This document shows positions 1 to 51,629 of a DNA stretch of 64,000 bases, piece after piece. A model generated the notes under the pieces. It was not told the DNA's origin and searched no databases. It saw only the letters and a program-made list of their open reading frames with translations. Every line of letters starts with the position of its first letter. Position 1 is the first letter of the stretch. Origin of the DNA: Holophagales bacterium. GTDB taxonomy: Bacteria > Acidobacteriota > Holophagae > Holophagales > Holophagaceae. Both the position numbers and the translations under genes were made by a program. The stretch covers positions 14,437-78,436 of the forward strand of contig JBBQEL010000008.1 of assembly GCA_038320645.1 (NCBI GenBank), read 5' to 3'.

Positions 1-749
1 ATTTCTCGGGACCTCATGGCTGGCAGTTTGCCGCTGTCAACCTGGGGCGACTCGAGGTGGGTCGCGAAGAAGGCCAGGACGGGGTGACCTGGGGAATGCA
101 CAAAGTCCTCCCGCTGGTCGAAGTTCGGGTGCCTTTCACCCTGGGGATCTGGGAACTGGATGATGTGGTGCGCGGCGCCAAGAATCCCGACCTGGATGCC
201 GTGAAGGAGGCCGCACGCAAGGTGGCGATGTTCGAGGAGACAGCCATCTATCACGGGTTCGGCGCCGGAGGCATTCAGGGAATGCTGGAACTCTCCAGCC
301 ATCCACCGGTGGCTTTGAGTCCCGACCGAAGCAGGCTCACCGAGTCCTTGGAACTGGCGCTGCTCGCCATTCAGGGCGCCGAGATCGGCGGGCCCTATGC
401 GCTGGTTCTCGGTACGGAACCCTACAAATGGTTGATGGCTGGCGACCCCAGTGCCTACCCGCTTCGGAAGCGGATCGGGGCCATGTTCTCAGGCGGCATC
501 CATTGGAGCCCGGTCCTGGAGGGGGGCGCTGTCCTGTCGCTCCGGGGCGGCGATTTCGAGCTGACGGTCGGCCAGGATCTGGCCATTGGCTACAAGATTC
601 ATGATTCCCGTAATGTCGAACTGTATTTCACGGAGTCCTTCACCTTCCGGGTGCTGGAACCCGCTGCCGCGATCGAGTTGAGAAGGCAGAATGCCCTGGG
701 CCAGGCCGACGCCTCTGCCGAATCAACCCATCCACGACCTGATGCGTGA
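1..749 (+). CDS. Family 1 encapsulin shell protein (Linocin M18 / HK97 fold), 5'-partial
   Basis: Frame is open from nt 3 (FSGPHGWQFAAVNLGRLE). It contains VEVRVPFTL, AARKVAMFEETAIYHG, GGPYALVLG and LRGGDFELTVGQDLAIGY...VELYFTESFTFRVLEPAAAIEL, all typical of family 1 encapsulins. Confidence 0.93.
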   Translation, partial: FSGPHGWQFAAVNLGRLEVGREEGQDGVTWGMHKVLPLVEVRVPFTLGIWELDDVVRGAKNPDLDAVKEAARKVAMFEETAIYHGFGAGGIQGMLELSSHPPVALSPDRSRLTESLELALLAIQGAEIGGPYALVLGTEPYKWLMAGDPSAYPLRKRIGAMFSGGIHWSPVLEGGAVLSLRGGDFELTVGQDLAIGYKIHDSRNVELYFTESFTFRVLEPAAAIELRRQNALGQADASAESTHPRPDA

Positions 750-2170
750 GGCCTGTGATGAAACAGGGAATTTCTGCTGATCAAGGATGGTCAAACGGAG
801 TCGGCCTGAGGTCTGCCCGGTATCGTTCCACGCTGACTTCCGTTCTTATCGGGCTGGCCCTTTGGTGGGGTGCGTCGCCATCGGCGGTCGCGCAAGAGGA
901 CTTCGGAAGTCTGGTCAAGCGCCTGCAGCAGGAGAAGCCGGGCTTTGCCAAACGCCACCAGGCTTTGCTCGCGCAGCGGTACGACCTTGGCGATCGTCCA
1001 GCCAAGGGCGTCACGATGTCTCGAGGCAAACCCGTGCAGGAGGGAGTGCGGGTGAAGCTCCCCAAGGGCCTGACGTGGATGAAGCTCGCCGACCTGTCTC
1101 CGGAGACCATCAAGGCCCAGGACCTTTGGCCCGCCGGGTTCCTGCCGCTGCCGCATCCGCACCATGAAACGGGCGGCATGATCTTTCCCCAAACGCTGAT
1201 CGATGAGACAAAACGACAAACGGATCGCGATCTCACCCGGTTCGATCTCGATTTCGATCTGCCGCAACACCTGCTGCCCGAGTTCCCCGCCCCGATCTAT
1301 CTCACGACCAGGCCGGACCTCGGCGATGTCTCGCAGGGGCAGGTGGTGACGCTGAGCAATGCCTATGGCTTGTTCAAGGACATCTTGAACCCCAAGCAAC
1401 TGGAGGGTCTGCGGCTGCTTGTGACCCCGTTTCCCCAGCAGCAGTTCAATGCCACGGAGGAACGGCGCAGCCTCAAGGCCCATGCAGGCGTGGCCTGCTT
1501 GGACTGCCATTCGAATGGCCATACCAACGCGGCCACCCACACCGTCGGCGACATCCGTCCAAACCAATACCGGCATCGAATCGGCACGCCCACGCTGCGG
1601 GGGCTCAACATCCAGCGGCTCTACGGTTCGCAGCGTGCCATGAAGACCGTGGAGGACTTCACCGAGTTTGAACAGCGTGGGGCCTACTTCGATGGCGACC
1701 CTGCTCAGGCCCAGCAGAAGGGGGTGAACATCCTCGAACGCGGAAGTCAGGTCCACGCCATGGCCGAGTTCCAGGAATTGCTGGATTTCCCGCCCGCACC
1801 GAAACTCAATGTCCTGGGGCGGCTTGCACCCACCAAGGCAACGGCCGCTGAGCTGCGCGGCCAGGCGGTCTTCCATGGCAAGGGGCAGTGCGCCGCGTGT
1901 CATGCACCGCCCTATTACACCGATAACCTCATGCACAACCTGCGTGCGGAGCGGTTCTTCAACGAGCGGACGATCAACGGTCTGCGGGCCTCTTCCGACG
2001 GTCCCATCAAGACCTTTCCCTTGAGAGGCATCAAGGATTCACCTCCCTATCTGCACGACGATCGGCTCCTGACGCTGGAAGACACGGTGGAGTTCTTCAA
2101 CCTCGTGCTGGAACTGAAACTGAATGATCAGGAGAAGAATGACCTGGTGGCGTTTCTGCGAGCACTCTAG
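746..2170 (+). CDS. Exported di-heme cytochrome c, CcP/MauG superfamily-like
   Basis: Hydrophobic signal-like N-terminus ending AVA-QE. Two CxxCH motifs (CLDCH ~1496-1510, CAACH ~1889-1903), plus TPTLRG and [18 protein letters not shown] start overlaps the encapsulin TGA; alternative ATG at 758. Confidence 0.8.
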
Positions 2171-2240
2171 GCCGCACACCTGGGACCGCTCCGCAAATCC
2201 TGGAATGGGTACTTCGAACAATGCAAAGGCGAGGGTCAAA

Positions 2241-3062
2241 ATGCCGAGAATCGCAACCAAGGATGGTACTGAAATCTATTTCAAGGACTGGGGCGCGGGT
2301 ACACCGGTGGTGTTCTGTCACGGTTGGCCCCTGAACGCGGATGCCTGGGAATCCCAGATGGTCTTCCTGGGCGCCCATGGCTATCGCTGCATTGCCCATG
2401 ACCGTCGGGGGCACGGCCGGTCCGGCCAGCCCTGGAAGGGCAACGACATGGACACCTATGCCGACGACCTGGCCGAATTGGTAGAAGCCCTGGATCTCAA
2501 AGGCGCAACCTTGATTGGCCACTCCACCGGCGGCGGGGAGGTCGCCCGGTACCTTGGCCGCCACGGAACCTCCCGCGCAGCCAAAGTGGTCCTGATGGGT
2601 TCGGTGACCCCCTTGATGCTGCAGACCGAGGCCAATCCTGGTGGACTCCCGCTCCAGGTATTCGACGGCATTCGCGCCGGCGTTACCGCTGATCGCTCGC
2701 AGTTTTTCAAGGATCTGACCACCGCCTTCTTCGGCGCCAACCGCGCCGGTTCCAAGGTGACCCAGGGCATGCGGGACGCCTTCTGGTTCCAGGGCATGCA
2801 GGGCAGCCTGAAAAGCGAGCTCGATTGCATCAAGGCCTTTTCCGAAACCGATTTCACCGAGGACCTGAAGCGGATTGACCTGCCGACGCTGATCATCCAC
2901 GGCGACGACGACCAGATCGTGCCCATCGGAGCCTCGGCCATGCTTTCGTCCAAGCTGATCAGGAAGGCCACGCTCAAGCTCTACCCGGGTGGACCTCATG
3001 GCTTGGCCGATACGCATAAGGACAGGCTCAACGAGGACTTGCTGGCTTTTCTGAAGACCTGA
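2241..3062 (+). CDS. cpo: Non-heme chloroperoxidase/arylesterase-type alpha/beta hydrolase
   Basis: [42 protein letters not shown] nucleophile elbow, [14 protein letters not shown]. Start set at ATG 2241 rather than the ORF-track start. Confidence 0.88.
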
Positions 3063-3326
3063 ATGAACCCACCTGACAGGAGCCGACCCTTCCTCCACCA
3101 CATCGTCCGCCCGACCCTTGTCCTGTGTGGACGTGAAGATGCCATCACACCTGTAGCGGTGCATGAAGAACTCGCCGCCGGCATCCATGGCTCAAAACTC
3201 GAGATCATCGAAGCCTGCGGTCACCTTTCGACACTGGGTCAGCCGCATCAGGTCTCCAGGGTGCTGGGCCGATGGCTCGAGGGCATCAGGGTTAGAATGA
3301 TGGCCCAGTACGAAATCCAGGCATGA
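3063..3326 (+). pseudogene. C-terminal remnant of a second alpha/beta hydrolase
   Basis: PTLVLCGREDAITP...LEIIEACGHLSTL covers only the acid and His part of the fold; no GxSxG. Begins in frame immediately after the cpo stop. Confidence 0.7.
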
Positions 3327-3344
3327 TCGAAGCGATGGGTGAAC

Positions 3345-4085
3345 ATGGTCCCTTCTGAACTCCGCCTGGAGCGGAAGAAGCGGCAGTTCCACGAGGCCAT
3401 GGACCGCTATGAAACGTGTCCGATCTACAAGCGCATCGACCGGGTGTGCTAGGTCCTCAATGTCGGCTTCCAGGTCGCGCTCCTGTGGAGGCTTTCCTCC
3501 ACAGGACTCTCCTTCTGGTGGATCCTTCTGGCCCTCGGGTTGGCCTACGTCCTGGCCGATTTCGTCAACGGCTTGACGCATCTGCTCATGGATCATGCGG
3601 ATCAGTACACCAGCTTCGTCGGCCCGTTCATGGCCAAGTTCCACCTTCATCACAAACTGCTCGTCTACCCTGAGCACACCCTGCCCATGGTCTACTTCCT
3701 GGAATCAGGCGCCAAGATCTGGCTGGTGTTCTTCCAGGCGGGGGTTCTGGCCCTGGCCCCGTGGCTGCCGCCTTTCGTCTTGCATACCCTCACCTACCTG
3801 GCCATCTGGTCTTCGGTGGCGGAGGTATCGCGTTACCTGTGCCACAACTCAAAATCCAGAACTGCGCTGCTGCTGGCCAAGGCAGGGTTGCTGCTGCGCA
3901 AGCAGCATCACGCCACGCACCATCAAAAGGACAACACCTGCTACTGCTTTTTGAATGGGATGGCGGATCCACTTGTGAACAGGATCGCCACGACCTGGTT
4001 CCCTGGTTACAAATCCAATACGGATTTGGATTTTGATGGGTACCAGGGTGCTCCGGCCAAGGGTCCGTCCACAACCATCCGCTGA
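3345..4085 (+). pseudogene. CarF/TMEM189-like lipid desaturase with in-frame TAG at 3450-3452
   Basis: Manual translation from ATG 3345: MVPSELRLERKKRQFHEAMDRYETCPIYKRIDRVC*VLNVGFQVALLW...LADFVNGLTHLLMDH...FHLHH...SRYLCH...KQHHATHH...NGMADPLVN. His clusters fit the family. Confidence 0.75.
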
Positions 4086-4177
4086 ATGCCTGCGTCACAT
4101 CCTGTCTCAGGAAGTGGGCAGGATGGCCCACCCTACCCACCACTTTGCCCTGGCGTCCTGGCACCAGCCTTCCCTGC

Positions 4178-5392
4178 CTACTGGTTCCACTGCGTGGGAA
4201 TGCCGGCCGCGGGGAAAGCCTTCGGCCGCTGGCCGCCCTCGAGGAAGAAGGCGGGCACGCCCTTCGCGGCTCGCTCCGCTTCTATTTTCGAGGCGTAGTC
4301 CCCGAGGAAGAGCTGATAGGCGGTCTTTCCGTCCCGCAACCTGATGGGGGCGATGAACAGATCGGGTTCCCGGCCGGGGAAGGCTCCCACGGCGTTCTTC
4401 AGGGTGGCGGGAAGGTTCGCGATTTCCAGGCGGATGGTCCACCGGTTCGCCGGAATGGCCTTGATGCGTTTTCGTCCCAGGCTCACGGCCTTCGCCAGAT
4501 CCCCCAGGAGCAGCGCATCCAAGCGCTCGGTCACCGTGGAGCCGGATGGCTTGACCGCCACGGGAGCAGCAGGAACCGGTACTGGCAGGGCCTTCGGCAT
4601 CGGGGCTGCCACTGCGACCGGAGCCGGGGTTGGCACCGGGGCGGCCACTTTGGGCGAAGCCGGGATGGGCGCGGGGGCAGCCATCGGGCGAGGTGCGGGG
4701 GCGATGGGAGCGGGAGTGGGAGCGGCAACCGGCGGAAGGGGTGACGGTGGCGCCACCATGACGACGGGCGGCGGCGGCGGACGGGGGACTTCGGCCCTGG
4801 GTGGCGTGGGTTCCTCGCGCCTGCGGGTGGCCTGGGGACCACCCCAGGTGAACCCGAGGAGCACCGAACCCTGGAAGGCGCTCAGCCCCTTGTCGGTGAA
4901 GGCAACGACATAGCGGCCGTCCACGCCCCAGAGGAGGCCCCGGAGCGGTCGATGGAGGAATCCGACCGAGGCGTGGGCCGCCACGGACGTCCCCGAAGCC
5001 AGGGTCTGCGGAGCAGGAGTGACCTTGGCGACGGTGGTGCTGCCCAGACCCAGACCGAAATATGGCCACAACCCACCAGGGGAATCCCCCAGCAGGCCAG
5101 TCATGAAGGTGACGGAAACCTGGTTGTGGCTGAGGGTCTTGCCCGGGAAGCGGCTGCTCTGGGCGTGGGCGGTGAAGGCCTCCAGGCTCAGCCCGTAGGG
5201 TTTGTGGGCGAACACCAGGCCGGCTTGGCCCCCGAAGAGGGGAGCCGCCTTGAGGTACTCCTGCGGATCGAACGAACGGGTCCCTGCGCGGAAGCCCACC
5301 CACTGGAAGCCCTGGCCGCTTTCCTGCGCTGCCAAGCCCGCGGCGAACACCGTCCACACGACCATCTGTCTGATCCACATGCCGTACTCCAT
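4178..5392 (-). CDS. Outer-membrane beta-barrel + Pro/Ala linker + C-terminal SPOR-like domain
   Basis: Signal peptide (VVWTVFAAGLAAQE), amphipathic strands (LWPYFGLGLG, HASVGFL, VLLGFTWG), long PAP linker, and WTIRLE...YQLFLGDYASKIEAERAAK. Start is 5392 or 5380. Confidence 0.6.
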   Translation of the reverse strand: MEYGMWIRQMVVWTVFAAGLAAQESGQGFQWVGFRAGTRSFDPQEYLKAAPLFGGQAGLVFAHKPYGLSLEAFTAHAQSSRFPGKTLSHNQVSVTFMTGLLGDSPGGLWPYFGLGLGSTTVAKVTPAPQTLASGTSVAAHASVGFLHRPLRGLLWGVDGRYVVAFTDKGLSAFQGSVLLGFTWGGPQATRRREEPTPPRAEVPRPPPPPVVMVAPPSPLPPVAAPTPAPIAPAPRPMAAPAPIPASPKVAAPVPTPAPVAVAAPMPKALPVPVPAAPVAVKPSGSTVTERLDALLLGDLAKAVSLGRKRIKAIPANRWTIRLEIANLPATLKNAVGAFPGREPDLFIAPIRLRDGKTAYQLFLGDYASKIEAERAAKGVPAFFLEGGQRPKAFPAAGIPTQWNQ

Positions 5393-5664
5393 GGTGCCGA
5401 GGGTGGTCGAGAGTATCGCAAGACCGGTCTCCTGGTTCCAGGAAATCTGACGAAGCCATTCAGCCCCAAGGCACGCCTGGCCTGCTGTGACTGGGGTGTC
5501 GTCGTACCGCATGATCAATGGTCGTGACAACGGATAGGCCGAAAGGCGTAGCTTGAGGAAGGGCTTCGCGGTCCCACCGGAGGTGCTGAACGGCACATCA
5601 GGTTGCGTGACGCCTGGAATCGGGACCGCCTATTCTGGATCTGTCCCTTTTCTCCGGTGGTTGG

Positions 5665-8007: not shown

Positions 8008-9159
<1,152 letters not shown>

Positions 9160-9196
9160 TTCGGGCAGGGCTGAGCCAGACATTGGGAGGCATTTC

Positions 9197-9546
9197 GTGA
9201 TGATCCTGACAAACCATTCCGAGGCGGCGGCCCAGGCCGGGGGCGGCCACGGACAGCTCGATGTGATGGGCGCCCTCTTCGTCTTCATGCTGGCCACCTT
9301 CATCGGTTTCATGGTCATCCAGCGGGTATCGCGGCTGTTGCACACGCCGCTCATGAGCCTCACCAACGCCATCTCCGCCATCGCCGTGGTGGGCGCCCTC
9401 ATCGTGTCGGCCGGCAAGGACTATCCCGGCTACATCACCGCGCTCGGCCTCGTGGCCATCTTCTGCTCCACCACCAACATCGTCAGCGGCTTCCTCATCA
9501 CCGACCGGATGCTGAAGATGTTCAAGAAGCAAGAGAAGGTGGTCCG

Positions 9547-9550
<4 letters not shown>
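9197..9550 (+). CDS. pntAB: NAD(P) transhydrogenase alpha subunit 2 (membrane)
   Basis: LHTPLMSLTNAISAI; NIVSGFLITDRMLKMF. Confidence 0.95.
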
Positions 9551-10968
<1,418 letters not shown>

Positions 10969-10971
10969 CCT

Positions 10972-11625
10972 TCAGCGCAGGCCGTGGTTCGCCTTGAAGC
11001 CAGCCCAGCCCTGTTTCGCCTTCAGGAAGGCCTCCCCATCGGGGCACAGCAGGAAGGGATTGGTGGCCTTCTCCCAGGCGAGGGTGCTGCTGGGCCGGGC
11101 ACCGTAGTCGTGGCCGGGCCAGAGGGTGGTGTGATCGGGCCACTCCCGCAGCAGGCGCTGGAGGCTCTCCCACTCGGTGCGGCCGTCGGCCTCAGTCTCG
11201 GTGCCGCCCACCTTGCCCACGAAGAGCAGGTCACCGGTGAAGGCGGCATCCTGGCCCTCCACCAGGAAGGCCAGGTGATCGTGGGAGTGGCCCGGGACGT
11301 GCCACACACGGAGTGAGTAGGCCCCGAAGGGCACTCGATCACCGTCAGCCAGTGTGAGGTCCACGGGGCCCGGATGGCCCGGCCCGCCCGCCACCCGGGC
11401 TCCGGTCAGGGCCTTGGCGACTTCATTGCCGTTGGCGTGATCCGCGTGGCCGTGGGTGTTGAGGATGTGGGTGACCTTGAGGCCCTGGGCCCGGGCCCGC
11501 TCCACCAGGGATTCCGGAGTGTAGGAGGGATCGATGAGCAGGCCCACGCCCGCCTCGCGATCGCCCAGCAGGTAGCCGAAGTTGCGGTCGCCCCCGACCC
11601 GGAGCTGTTCAAAAATGAAGCGCAT
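10972..11625 (-). CDS. MBL-fold metallo-hydrolase (glyoxalase II-like)
   Basis: THGHADH motif, PGHSHDH, FTGDLLF, PGHDY, EKATNPF. Confidence 0.88.
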   Translation of the reverse strand: MRFIFEQLRVGGDRNFGYLLGDREAGVGLLIDPSYTPESLVERARAQGLKVTHILNTHGHADHANGNEVAKALTGARVAGGPGHPGPVDLTLADGDRVPFGAYSLRVWHVPGHSHDHLAFLVEGQDAAFTGDLLFVGKVGGTETEADGRTEWESLQRLLREWPDHTTLWPGHDYGARPSSTLAWEKATNPFLLCPDGEAFLKAKQGWAGFKANHGLR

Positions 11626-23773: not shown

Positions 23774-23797
23774 CACAGCCCTCTTGCGAGGGCTGTG
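23774..23797 (-). terminator. Hairpin immediately downstream of rnpB
   Basis: cacagccctc-ttgc-gagggctgtg, followed by a weak U-rich tract. Confidence 0.6.
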
Positions 23798-24155
23798 GTG
23801 GACCGGTAAGCCGGGTTCTGTCGTGGGACGTCATTCCTCTGGGATGGATGTCGCCACCCACCTCGTGCGACCTACCCGCCGGCTCGATCGGGTCAATCCT
23901 CGCCGCTTGCGCGGTGCGCCGGCTTATTTGGTCTTGCTCCCTGGGGGGTTTACCTTGCCCGTCCTGTTGCCAGCCCGGCGGTGGGCTCTTACCCCACCGT
24001 TTCACCCTTGCCTGTTCCGCTTGCGCGGTCATCGGCGGTCTCTTCTCTGTTGCACTTTCCGTCGGGTCGCCCCGCCCTGGTGTTACCAGGCCCAGTACCC
24101 TGCGGAGCCCGGACTTTCCTCTGCCCTTGCGGACAGCGACGCCCTGATCCACAGG
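23797..24155 (-). ncRNA. rnpB: RNase P RNA, bacterial type A
   Basis: Minus strand has GAGGAAAGTCCGGGCTC, GGAAAGTGCAACAGA, GGGTGAAACGGTGGGGTAAGAGCCCACC, GGTAAACCCC...GAGCAAGACCAAATA and ACAGAACCCGGCTTA. Ends are approximate. Confidence 0.97.
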
Positions 24156-51552: not shown

Positions 51553-51629
51553 GGTCCCGTAGCTCAGCTGGATAGAGCAGCTCCCTCCTAAGGAGCAGGT
51601 CGGACGTTCGAATCGTCTCGGGGCCACCA
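51553..51629 (+). tRNA. tRNA-Arg (anticodon CCT)
   Basis: Acceptor GGTCCCG/CGGGGCC, D arm AGCTCAGCTGGATAGAGC, anticodon arm GCTCC-CTCCTAA-GGAGC, T loop TTCGAAT, encoded CCA. Confidence 0.97.

Follow-up and report, generated by a model that had tools for sequence, protein, structure and literature searches.

A family 1 encapsulin gene runs off the left edge of a 64,000-nucleotide stretch of DNA from a Holophagales bacterium (NCBI GenBank assembly GCA_038320645.1, contig JBBQEL010000008.1, positions 14,437 to 78,436 of the forward strand; the whole stretch is here called the window). It is followed by genes for an exported di-heme c-type cytochrome and for a hydrolase of the cofactor-free haloperoxidase type (cpo). 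Its encapsulin part having passed every sequence-level test, the locus is best read as a classical family 1 encapsulin operon of the Flp/EncFtn kind, with the cargo gene just outside the window. What are the two further genes doing there? The account considered probable here, with a good deal of doubt left, is that of an ordinary EncFtn-encapsulin operon in a flexible neighbourhood of peroxide- and iron-stress genes, where the di-heme and cpo genes would be linked to the nanocompartment by shared regulation and not physically. The features in question are the following.

1 to 749, plus strand: 3' part of the family 1 encapsulin shell gene, 248 codons and the stop (PF04454, NF041155).
758 to 2170 (alternative GTG start at 746), plus strand: exported di-heme c-type cytochrome of 470 residues, with two CxxCH motifs.
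758 to 895, plus strand: predicted Sec-type signal peptide of the di-heme protein, residues 1 to 46, from inspection of the sequence.
1496 to 1510, plus strand: first heme c attachment motif, CLDCH (residue 247), followed by an invariant NGHT.
1889 to 1903, plus strand: second heme c attachment motif, CAACH (residue 378).
2241 to 3062, plus strand: cytoplasmic alpha/beta hydrolase of the cofactor-free 'non-heme haloperoxidase'/perhydrolase/arylesterase type (cpo), 273 residues (PF00561, 1a8s).
3063 to 3326, plus strand: remnant of an alpha/beta hydrolase gene, 87 codons (Abhydrolase_1 profile positions 191 to 240 of 245, 3.9e-5).

An earlier sequence-only reading had placed the encapsulin, di-heme and cpo genes on the plus strand, and all three are present at the coordinates it gave. 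Positions 1 to 749 have no internal stop and encode the C-terminal 248 residues of a family 1 encapsulin, which match Pfam Linocin_M18 (PF04454) at 2e-63 and NCBIfam encap_f1 (NF041155) at 1.4e-68 (231 bits against a cutoff of 100). The match covers positions 37 to 261 of the 261 in the encap_f1 profile, and the gene therefore continues beyond the left window edge. A public contig of 3.6 kb (L001; loci are given L numbers throughout), retrieved by exact look-up of the di-heme protein sequence, shares 99.96% identity with window positions 1 to 2403 and reaches 1.2 kb further left. On it the full shell gene occupies positions 1130 to 1993 and encodes 287 residues, starting MKDLLRRDMAPIV. Among solved shells the EncFtn-loading T=1 encapsulin of Haliangium ochraceum (7odw) comes closest, at 1.5e-71, and its residue 2 aligns with residue 3 of the present protein. 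Relatives that bear names belong to Geothrix and Holophaga (76-79% identical), and the sequence is present in sediment and freshwater metagenomes. Going by this one gene, the source is probably an acidobacterium of the Holophagae.

The shell also has a tail of about 20 residues beyond the family profile (window positions 684 to 746), which ends in PDA. A few relatives, also of 287 residues, have non-homologous tails that likewise end in (Q/P)DA; most relatives are of 263 to 274 residues.

Where is the cargo? The sequence-only reading had guessed that it lies upstream of the window, and that is where L001 has it: a gene for a 112-residue EncFtn protein with a C-terminal targeting peptide (L001 762 to 1100) stands directly before the shell gene. 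A precomputed assignment to the Pfam EncFtn-like family (PF22277) is on record for the product. It matches TIGR04535, 'encapsulin-associated ferritin-like protein', at 7e-35, with 119.4 bits slightly below the cutoff of 125, in an alignment that extends through the last residue. Matches to the solved EncFtn proteins 5da5 (5e-25) and 7oe2 range from 1e-25 to 1e-23, that to 3k6c is at 3e-28, and the EMEH ferroxidase motif (Glu/Glu/His) is kept. The C-terminus reads ...GTGLGLGNLK, within ...GVAPAPAEGTGLGLGNLK, and the end of the protein, ...APAPAEGTGLGLGNLK, consists of a Pro/Ala linker and a close match to the published consensus of family 1 targeting peptides, SDGSLGIGSLKRS (PMC8346489). This peptide would anchor the cargo to the inside of the shell. 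To judge by the EncFtn systems that have been characterised, EncFtn would then oxidise Fe(II), the iron mineral would be laid down within a shell of roughly 24 nm, and iron stored in this way would be kept from cytoplasmic peroxide.

Upstream of the EncFtn gene, L001 has 420 nt of spacer, preceded by the 3' end of a gene for a sigma-54-type activator (AAA lid and HTH_8; positions 2 to 337). A sigma-54 promoter upstream of the EncFtn gene was considered and rejected, the pattern search having given 19 matches against 16.8 expected from shuffles. At L001 576 to 611, about 150 nt upstream of the EncFtn start, there is an AT-rich imperfect palindrome of 36 nt in GC-rich surroundings, GCAATAAATGAACATA-aaaa-TAGGATCAGTTATTGC. 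This candidate operator or promoter region is not conserved in two related loci, L137 and L138.

Might the di-heme protein or the hydrolase be additional cargo? The sequence-only reading had held that neither is, and the evidence agrees. A regular-expression scan finds no targeting-peptide-like motif in any open reading frame of the window, and a secondary cargo elsewhere in the window was rejected on this ground; one of the two downstream proteins ends in ...DLVAFLRAL, and neither carries such a motif. The N-terminus of the di-heme protein has, by inspection, Arg residues, a hydrophobic core (mean Kyte-Doolittle value 2.1) and an AxA-like site, ...SAVA/QE, and its homologues have shorter but equivalent N-termini. 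Cytochromes of the c type that carry a signal peptide mature in the periplasm, where heme c is attached; a protein with the predicted signal peptide seen here would do so too and therefore cannot be a lumenal cargo.

The hydrolase has no signal peptide and aligns end to end with cofactor-free haloperoxidases, so that no extension is left. Against chloroperoxidase F (PDB 1a8s) the E-value is 1.8e-130, with residues 5-272 aligned to 4-272, and against PF00561 it is 6.6e-35; 1a88, 1a8q and the arylesterase 1va4 are matched also, the full-length matches ranging from 1e-97 to 1e-130. Its Ser-Asp-His triad is intact (GHS95TG, the Asp in HGDDD, and His253 in GGPH253G). The earlier assignment to the cpo type is confirmed by the full-length match to 1a8s and by the triad, and by its sequence the protein is an unexceptional cofactor-free haloperoxidase/perhydrolase. 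As judged by these features, the di-heme and cpo genes are accessory genes and encode no cargo.

How closely are these genes joined? The overlap previously noted between the encapsulin TGA (747 to 749) and a GTG codon (746 to 748) does exist, but the ATG at 758 is the likelier start of the di-heme gene. It is preceded by GAGG (748 to 751) at a spacing of 6 nt, the public contig gene call for an identical 470-residue product starts there, and among public gene calls no gene with the start at GTG 746 is on record. The encapsulin and di-heme genes are probably 8 nt apart and do not overlap; their coupling is tight whichever start codon is right. The cpo ATG at 2241 follows the di-heme stop by 70 nt and has GAGGG 5 nt upstream. 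With gaps of 8 and 70 nt, which leave no space for a promoter or a terminator, and no terminator-like site in the window before 4010, co-transcription of the di-heme and cpo genes with the EncFtn-encapsulin core is probable. The encapsulin/di-heme junction is no assembly artefact or chimera, because it recurs, at 100% protein identity, in three public contigs that were assembled independently (L001 from Logan, L133 from ENA, and L088, the same as L134, from JGI).

The neighbourhood of the encapsulin was compared across 45 metagenome loci, with shells 66-90% identical to that of the window (one outlier has 44%), and four further contigs. Wherever one of the 45 loci includes upstream DNA, the EncFtn gene precedes the shell gene. 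The genes around this core vary. A gene for an Fe/Mn superoxide dismutase (SOD) stands directly upstream of EncFtn in 13 loci, on the same strand and 4-40 nt away (L090, L091, L094, L104, L107, L119, L120, L123, L131, L132, L135, L136 and L138; the SOD-EncFtn-encapsulin order is seen e.g. at L138 3818-5605). L001, which represents the window's lineage, has no SOD gene, and its positions from about 490 to 545 are homologous to DNA upstream of SOD in L138. This suggests that SOD was lost in the window's lineage. Directly downstream of the shell, cpo is found in L100, L101, L105 and L137, and in L098 it comes after a DJ-1/PfpI gene; DJ-1 follows the shell in L095 as well. A different alpha/beta hydrolase, of 258 residues, lies behind the shell in L093, L113, L128, L135 and L136, followed by MsrAB in L135 and L136. 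A hemerythrin gene is upstream in L137, and unrelated genes are behind the shell in about 15 loci. Sister lineages have the same EncFtn-encapsulin core beside SOD, DJ-1/PfpI, MsrAB, hemerythrin, cpo or another hydrolase.

The di-heme gene is behind the shell only in the window's own sequence, L082 and L138. Among about 27 close relatives with readable downstream DNA, none outside one small clade has it there, and it is missing from the three loci with the most similar shells (L090, L091 and L128, 84-86%). L138, a contig of 13.8 kb, carries on one strand the series SOD-EncFtn-encapsulin-di-heme-cpo-porin. DNA identity is 86.5% between L082 and L138 and about 77% between the window and either of them, on which grounds they are counted as three species that share the order EncFtn-encapsulin-di-heme-cpo. 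The spacing in the three species goes from a 4-nt overlap (shell and di-heme genes of L082) to 47 nt. A neighbour-joining tree of the shells, computed without support values, groups the window with L137 and L138 in one clade. L082 has only a 70-residue shell fragment and was left out of the tree; it is counted in the clade because its DNA is 86.5% identical to that of L138 along the whole length. L137, in the same clade, has the shell gene and then cpo 10 nt later, with no di-heme gene. The sequence-only reading had raised two prospects, that the arrangement is found nowhere else and that close relatives carry the encapsulin without these neighbours: the first does not hold, given L082 and L138, but the second largely does. 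Only one small clade would have acquired or kept the di-heme gene between shell and cpo.

Seen from the side of the di-heme gene, the pairing is rare as well. Eighty genome loci, with up to 10 kb of each flank, and six further contigs were compared (86 loci). Neighbour counts rest on tblastn, on hidden Markov model (HMM) searches with defined queries and on public-contig gene calls, and not on a longest-ORF (open reading frame) gene caller, which is unreliable in GC-rich DNA, where it picks long antisense frames. By tblastn and purpose-built HMMs an encapsulin gene is near the di-heme gene in a single locus, L082, a member of the window's own clade; none of the other 85, which include the 80 genome loci, has one. 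The linkage between shell and di-heme genes is confined to one small clade and is a general property of neither family.

These distributions allow a plain alternative. The di-heme gene, alone or with cpo, may have been inserted once in the ancestor of the clade and be transcribed by accidental read-through, with no functional link to the shell. Neutral juxtaposition of this kind is rather unlikely. It is what one encapsulin among 86 di-heme loci, and that one in the window's own clade, would lead one to expect, as would the lack of the di-heme gene behind the shell outside the clade (L090, L091 and L128 included) and the L137 arrangement of shell and cpo alone. The 66-84% identity of the di-heme family across phyla is consistent with frequent horizontal transfer, and the right edge of the cluster bears scars (the hydrolase remnant at 3063-3326 and a TAG at 3450 in a desaturase gene) in DNA whose GC content over 1-4100 is 0.58-0.62 against 0.657. 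What does not fit a mere accident is the spacing, which is kept between a 4-nt overlap and 47 nt in three species at 77-86% DNA identity. In addition, cpo occurs beside both partners far oftener than random placement would give, and there are independent echoes of the cluster in other phyla.

What are these echoes? No neighbour is conserved throughout the 80 di-heme loci. An orthologue of cpo (68-79% identical) is the commonest: in 8 of the 80, from Rokubacteria, Betaproteobacteria, Omnitrophota, Nitrospinota, Thiobacillus and Gallionella, it adjoins the di-heme gene on one side or the other; in one more locus it is 4.5 kb away and in another it is present as fragments. Genes for Fur-family regulators (best match PerR), for rubrerythrin and for a Dps/Bfr-like ferritin, and a LysR regulator gene transcribed divergently, are neighbours in 3-5 loci each, e.g. 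in the order PerR-like/di-heme/rubrerythrin in L048. An identification of the LysR neighbours as OxyR was rejected, OxyR being only one among several sub-threshold matches. In L033, a betaproteobacterial metagenome-assembled genome, cpo, an EncFtn-like gene and the di-heme gene follow one another on one strand (8741-11329), echoing three of the four window genes in another phylum. It is the only one of the 86 loci with an EncFtn-like gene near the di-heme gene. Its EncFtn-like product has 90 residues, matches PF22277 at 2.7e-39, is similar to the solved NE0167 (3k6c) and lacks a targeting peptide; no shell gene is found within 10 kb.

Could shell and cytochrome then form a dedicated unit in two compartments? 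The sequence-only reading had offered, as one of two choices, a module that pairs a cytoplasmic nanocompartment with a periplasmic enzyme. In such a module the di-heme protein would remove periplasmic peroxide or oxidise incoming Fe(II), EncFtn would store the iron, and the pairing would be selected. The tight and probably translationally coupled spacing and the order conserved in three species are in keeping with this, as are the L033 EncFtn-like gene, 4-40 nt upstream of the di-heme gene in an unrelated phylum, and the recurrence of ferritin-superfamily genes (Dps/Bfr-like, rubrerythrin) beside the di-heme gene. The idea is nonetheless highly improbable. The pairing is rare both ways, with 85 di-heme loci that lack an encapsulin and the di-heme gene in one clade among some 27 shell relatives; the L033 EncFtn-like protein has neither targeting peptide nor nearby shell gene; and the cluster encodes no shared cofactor, transporter or partner cytochrome. 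The other choice offered, a wholly unrelated cassette, is too strong, in view of the order kept tight in three species, the recurrence of cpo beside both partners and the stress genes that neighbour the di-heme gene elsewhere. A shared stress regulon, with no physical or cargo relationship, is moderately favoured over accident by the tight spacing in three species, cpo beside both partners, the recurring stress and iron genes and the L033 echo.

What kind of protein is the di-heme cytochrome? Its two heme motifs, CLDCH (247) and CAACH (378), are about 130 residues apart. TIGR03791, MauG, matches its C-terminal 140 residues at 4.4e-9, and the best NCBIfam matches are to MauG and MauG-like families; the NCBIfam MauG and MbnH models score it at 24-36 bits against cutoffs above 340. 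The C-terminal 140 residues match the bacterial cytochrome c peroxidase (bCCP) 3o5c at 8e-5 as a single sequence and at 3.7e-9 as a family profile, and the family profile matches 1iqc at 6e-7. PPYLHDD aligns with YPYFHDG of 3o5c. The motifs CxxCHxNGHT, TDNxMHNL and PPYLHDDR are invariant in the family, and the roughly 150-200 residues before the first heme are specific to it. PF03150 is weakly matched by 27 of 46 family members (best 0.0026). The likeness to cytochrome c peroxidases and MauG proposed earlier is borne out as a distant one, by homology of the C-terminal heme domain, and the protein is best described from its sequence as a divergent, uncharacterised branch of the bCCP/MauG superfamily.

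The family is very large and strikingly conserved, and no Pfam model covers it. More than 8000 homologues are found, the best 120 of which are 76-84% identical, and the 80 genome matches that were kept are 66-80% identical. These 80 span Pseudomonadota, Planctomycetota, Verrucomicrobiota, Acidobacteriota, Myxococcota, Omnitrophota, Nitrospinota, Legionella and others; the family as a whole covers about a dozen phyla, at 66-84% identity. NCBI names its members 'cytochrome B6', which is misleading, and JGI 'cytochrome c peroxidase'. No characterised member was found in the searches made.

As to function, the protein would most likely reduce H2O2 or another peroxide outside the cytoplasmic membrane. 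The main basis for a peroxide-related role is that about a quarter of the loci lie among peroxide- and iron-stress genes. With a Phe at the Met position and no Pfam membership, the peroxidase activity is predicted from distant homology and gene neighbours. A different function has to be weighed, namely that of a MauG-, RoxA- or FadCcp-like enzyme which uses an oxidant on a protein or lipid substrate and is not a peroxidase, an idea compatible with the other readings. The best NCBIfam matches point this way, as do the resemblance of PYLHDD to the MauG signature PYFHNG (PMC4496055), the Phe at the canonical Met position, a match of two family members to a RoxA-like cytochrome domain at 2e-4, and the stretch of about 150-200 residues, peculiar to the family, in front of the first heme; a cpo-type esterase and a lipid desaturase gene downstream would hint at lipid or oxylipin chemistry. 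However, the desaturase gene contains an in-frame stop and has no conserved counterpart in L082 or L138, no conserved substrate-protein gene adjoins the di-heme gene in the 80 loci, and the recurrent neighbours are peroxide- and iron-stress genes, not genes for lipids or quinone cofactors. An enzyme of this sort is unlikely here.

Several findings weigh against the account favoured here, of an ordinary EncFtn-encapsulin operon joined to a peroxidase by shared stress regulation. Most loci on both the encapsulin and the di-heme side are without the pairing, so that selection for the linkage is weak at best, and the three species that share it form one clade, for which a single, vertically inherited neutral insertion gives the same picture. 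Peroxide- and iron-stress neighbours occur in only about a quarter of the 80 di-heme loci. With regard to co-transcription, none of the RNA runs searched for the region carries it. With regard to peroxidase activity, no Pfam family is matched at threshold by the di-heme protein, and PF03150 gives no match at E<=10. The Met in ...AVNTM of 3o5c, presumably the ligand of the electron-transfer heme in bCCPs, aligns with Phe447, which is invariant in 40 homologues; at the canonical position the protein thus has neither the Met of bCCPs nor the Tyr of MauG. AlphaFold2 models are poor as well, with a pLDDT (predicted local distance difference test) of 42 from 40 close homologues, and of 59, with a pTM (predicted template modelling score) of 0.52, when six distant relatives are added. 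A Foldseek search of the PDB with the poor model of pLDDT 59 gave a best E of 0.38, which is not significant, and its top nine matches are all bCCP/MauG proteins.

How does the locus compare with systems already described? The Flp/EncFtn systems of Haliangium ochraceum (7odw/7oe2) and Rhodospirillum rubrum (5da5) have the same shell family, an ExxH cargo with its gene directly upstream and a consensus-like peptide. Unlike them, the window's shell has the tail of about 20 residues ending in PDA, shared with few relatives, the operon continues into two genes that are not for cargo, and in sister lineages SOD precedes EncFtn. SOD and hydrolases both go unmentioned in the main text of a survey of encapsulin operons from 2021 (PMC8346489). 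Only one family 1 association of encapsulin with a di-heme c-type cytochrome has been described, in anammox encapsulins, where an N-terminal di-heme cytochrome c is fused to the shell and the gene is next to NIR-HAO (PMC8346489). In the present locus, in contrast, the shell N-terminus is normal and unfused, the cytochrome is a separate, exported, CCP-like protein of 470 residues, and the cargo is EncFtn; no NIR-HAO neighbour is present on L001 or in the window. No paper that connects encapsulins with cytochrome c peroxidases came up in a full-text literature search.

Proteins of the bCCP/MauG group (Shewanella CcpA 3o5c, Nitrosomonas 1iqc, MauG 3sxt and MbnH 6e1c) are likewise exported, with two CxxCH motifs, an alignable C-terminal heme domain and a P-Y-(F/L)-H-D motif. 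The di-heme protein differs from them in falling below Pfam and NCBIfam thresholds, in some 150-200 extra N-terminal residues, in the invariant Phe at the Met position and in CxxCHxNGHT and TDNxMHNL, which are specific to its family. The hydrolase has the length and triad of the cofactor-free haloperoxidases (CPO-F 1a8s, CPO-L 1a88, BPO-A1 1a8q and the Pseudomonas fluorescens esterase 1va4); nothing structural sets it apart, and only its genomic position is unusual. The whole is a known kind of system, with a composition of accessory genes seen in few species.

The right-hand edge of the cluster has its own history. The remnant at 3063-3326 starts at the base after the cpo stop and holds the C-terminal third of an alpha/beta hydrolase, with Asp and His regions and no nucleophile; it is a probable scar of a rearrangement, by deletion or insertion. 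Derivation from the 258-residue hydrolase found behind other shells (L113, L128, L135), which would have been proof of an insertion, was considered and rejected, the identity being only 34-38%. A gene for a CarF/TMEM189-type lipid desaturase (PF10520) follows, from the ATG at 3345 to 4085, with an in-frame TAG at 3450-3452. The interruption may mean a pseudogene, or it may be a variant of the strain or of the sequencing. In Myxococcus, plasmalogens made by CarF-type enzymes are linked to singlet-oxygen signalling. In L082 and L138 a porin gene comes after cpo instead, and the desaturase is not conserved there. The GC content across 1-4100 is 0.58-0.62, against 0.657 for the whole window, and that at third codon positions is 0.66-0.78, against 0.88-0.89 in genes further right. 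These features fit a right-hand boundary that has been rearranged and was perhaps horizontally acquired.

The composition is atypical for the whole cluster, the encapsulin gene included. Further right are unrelated housekeeping genes (for a CvfB-like S1 protein, a YgjP-like metallopeptidase and a radical SAM enzyme). An open reading frame of 472 codons on the minus strand (4178-5596) has a long Pro/Ala-rich central region and no Pfam match. A bacterial class A RNase P RNA lies at 23789-24154 on the minus strand (263 bits), and one tRNA gene at 51553-51626 on the plus strand.

What first appeared to be a cargo-less encapsulin tied to a cytochrome turns out to be an ordinary EncFtn system that the left edge of the window cuts in two. 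The presence of the Holophagae EncFtn-encapsulin core in a variable oxidative-stress cluster supports a role in stress defence alongside iron storage. A broader proposal would make the di-heme family a new, extremely conserved periplasmic enzyme family at the core of peroxide and iron-stress defence, tied to cytoplasmic iron-sequestering proteins, with the Holophagae operon, its cpo-type hydrolase included, as a two-compartment defence unit under one promoter. It is speculative and has a low probability. If true, the iron-sequestering partners would be EncFtn nanocompartments here, and Dps, rubrerythrin and shell-less EncFtn-like proteins elsewhere. The most interesting by-product is the di-heme family itself, as characterising one member would annotate thousands of genes.

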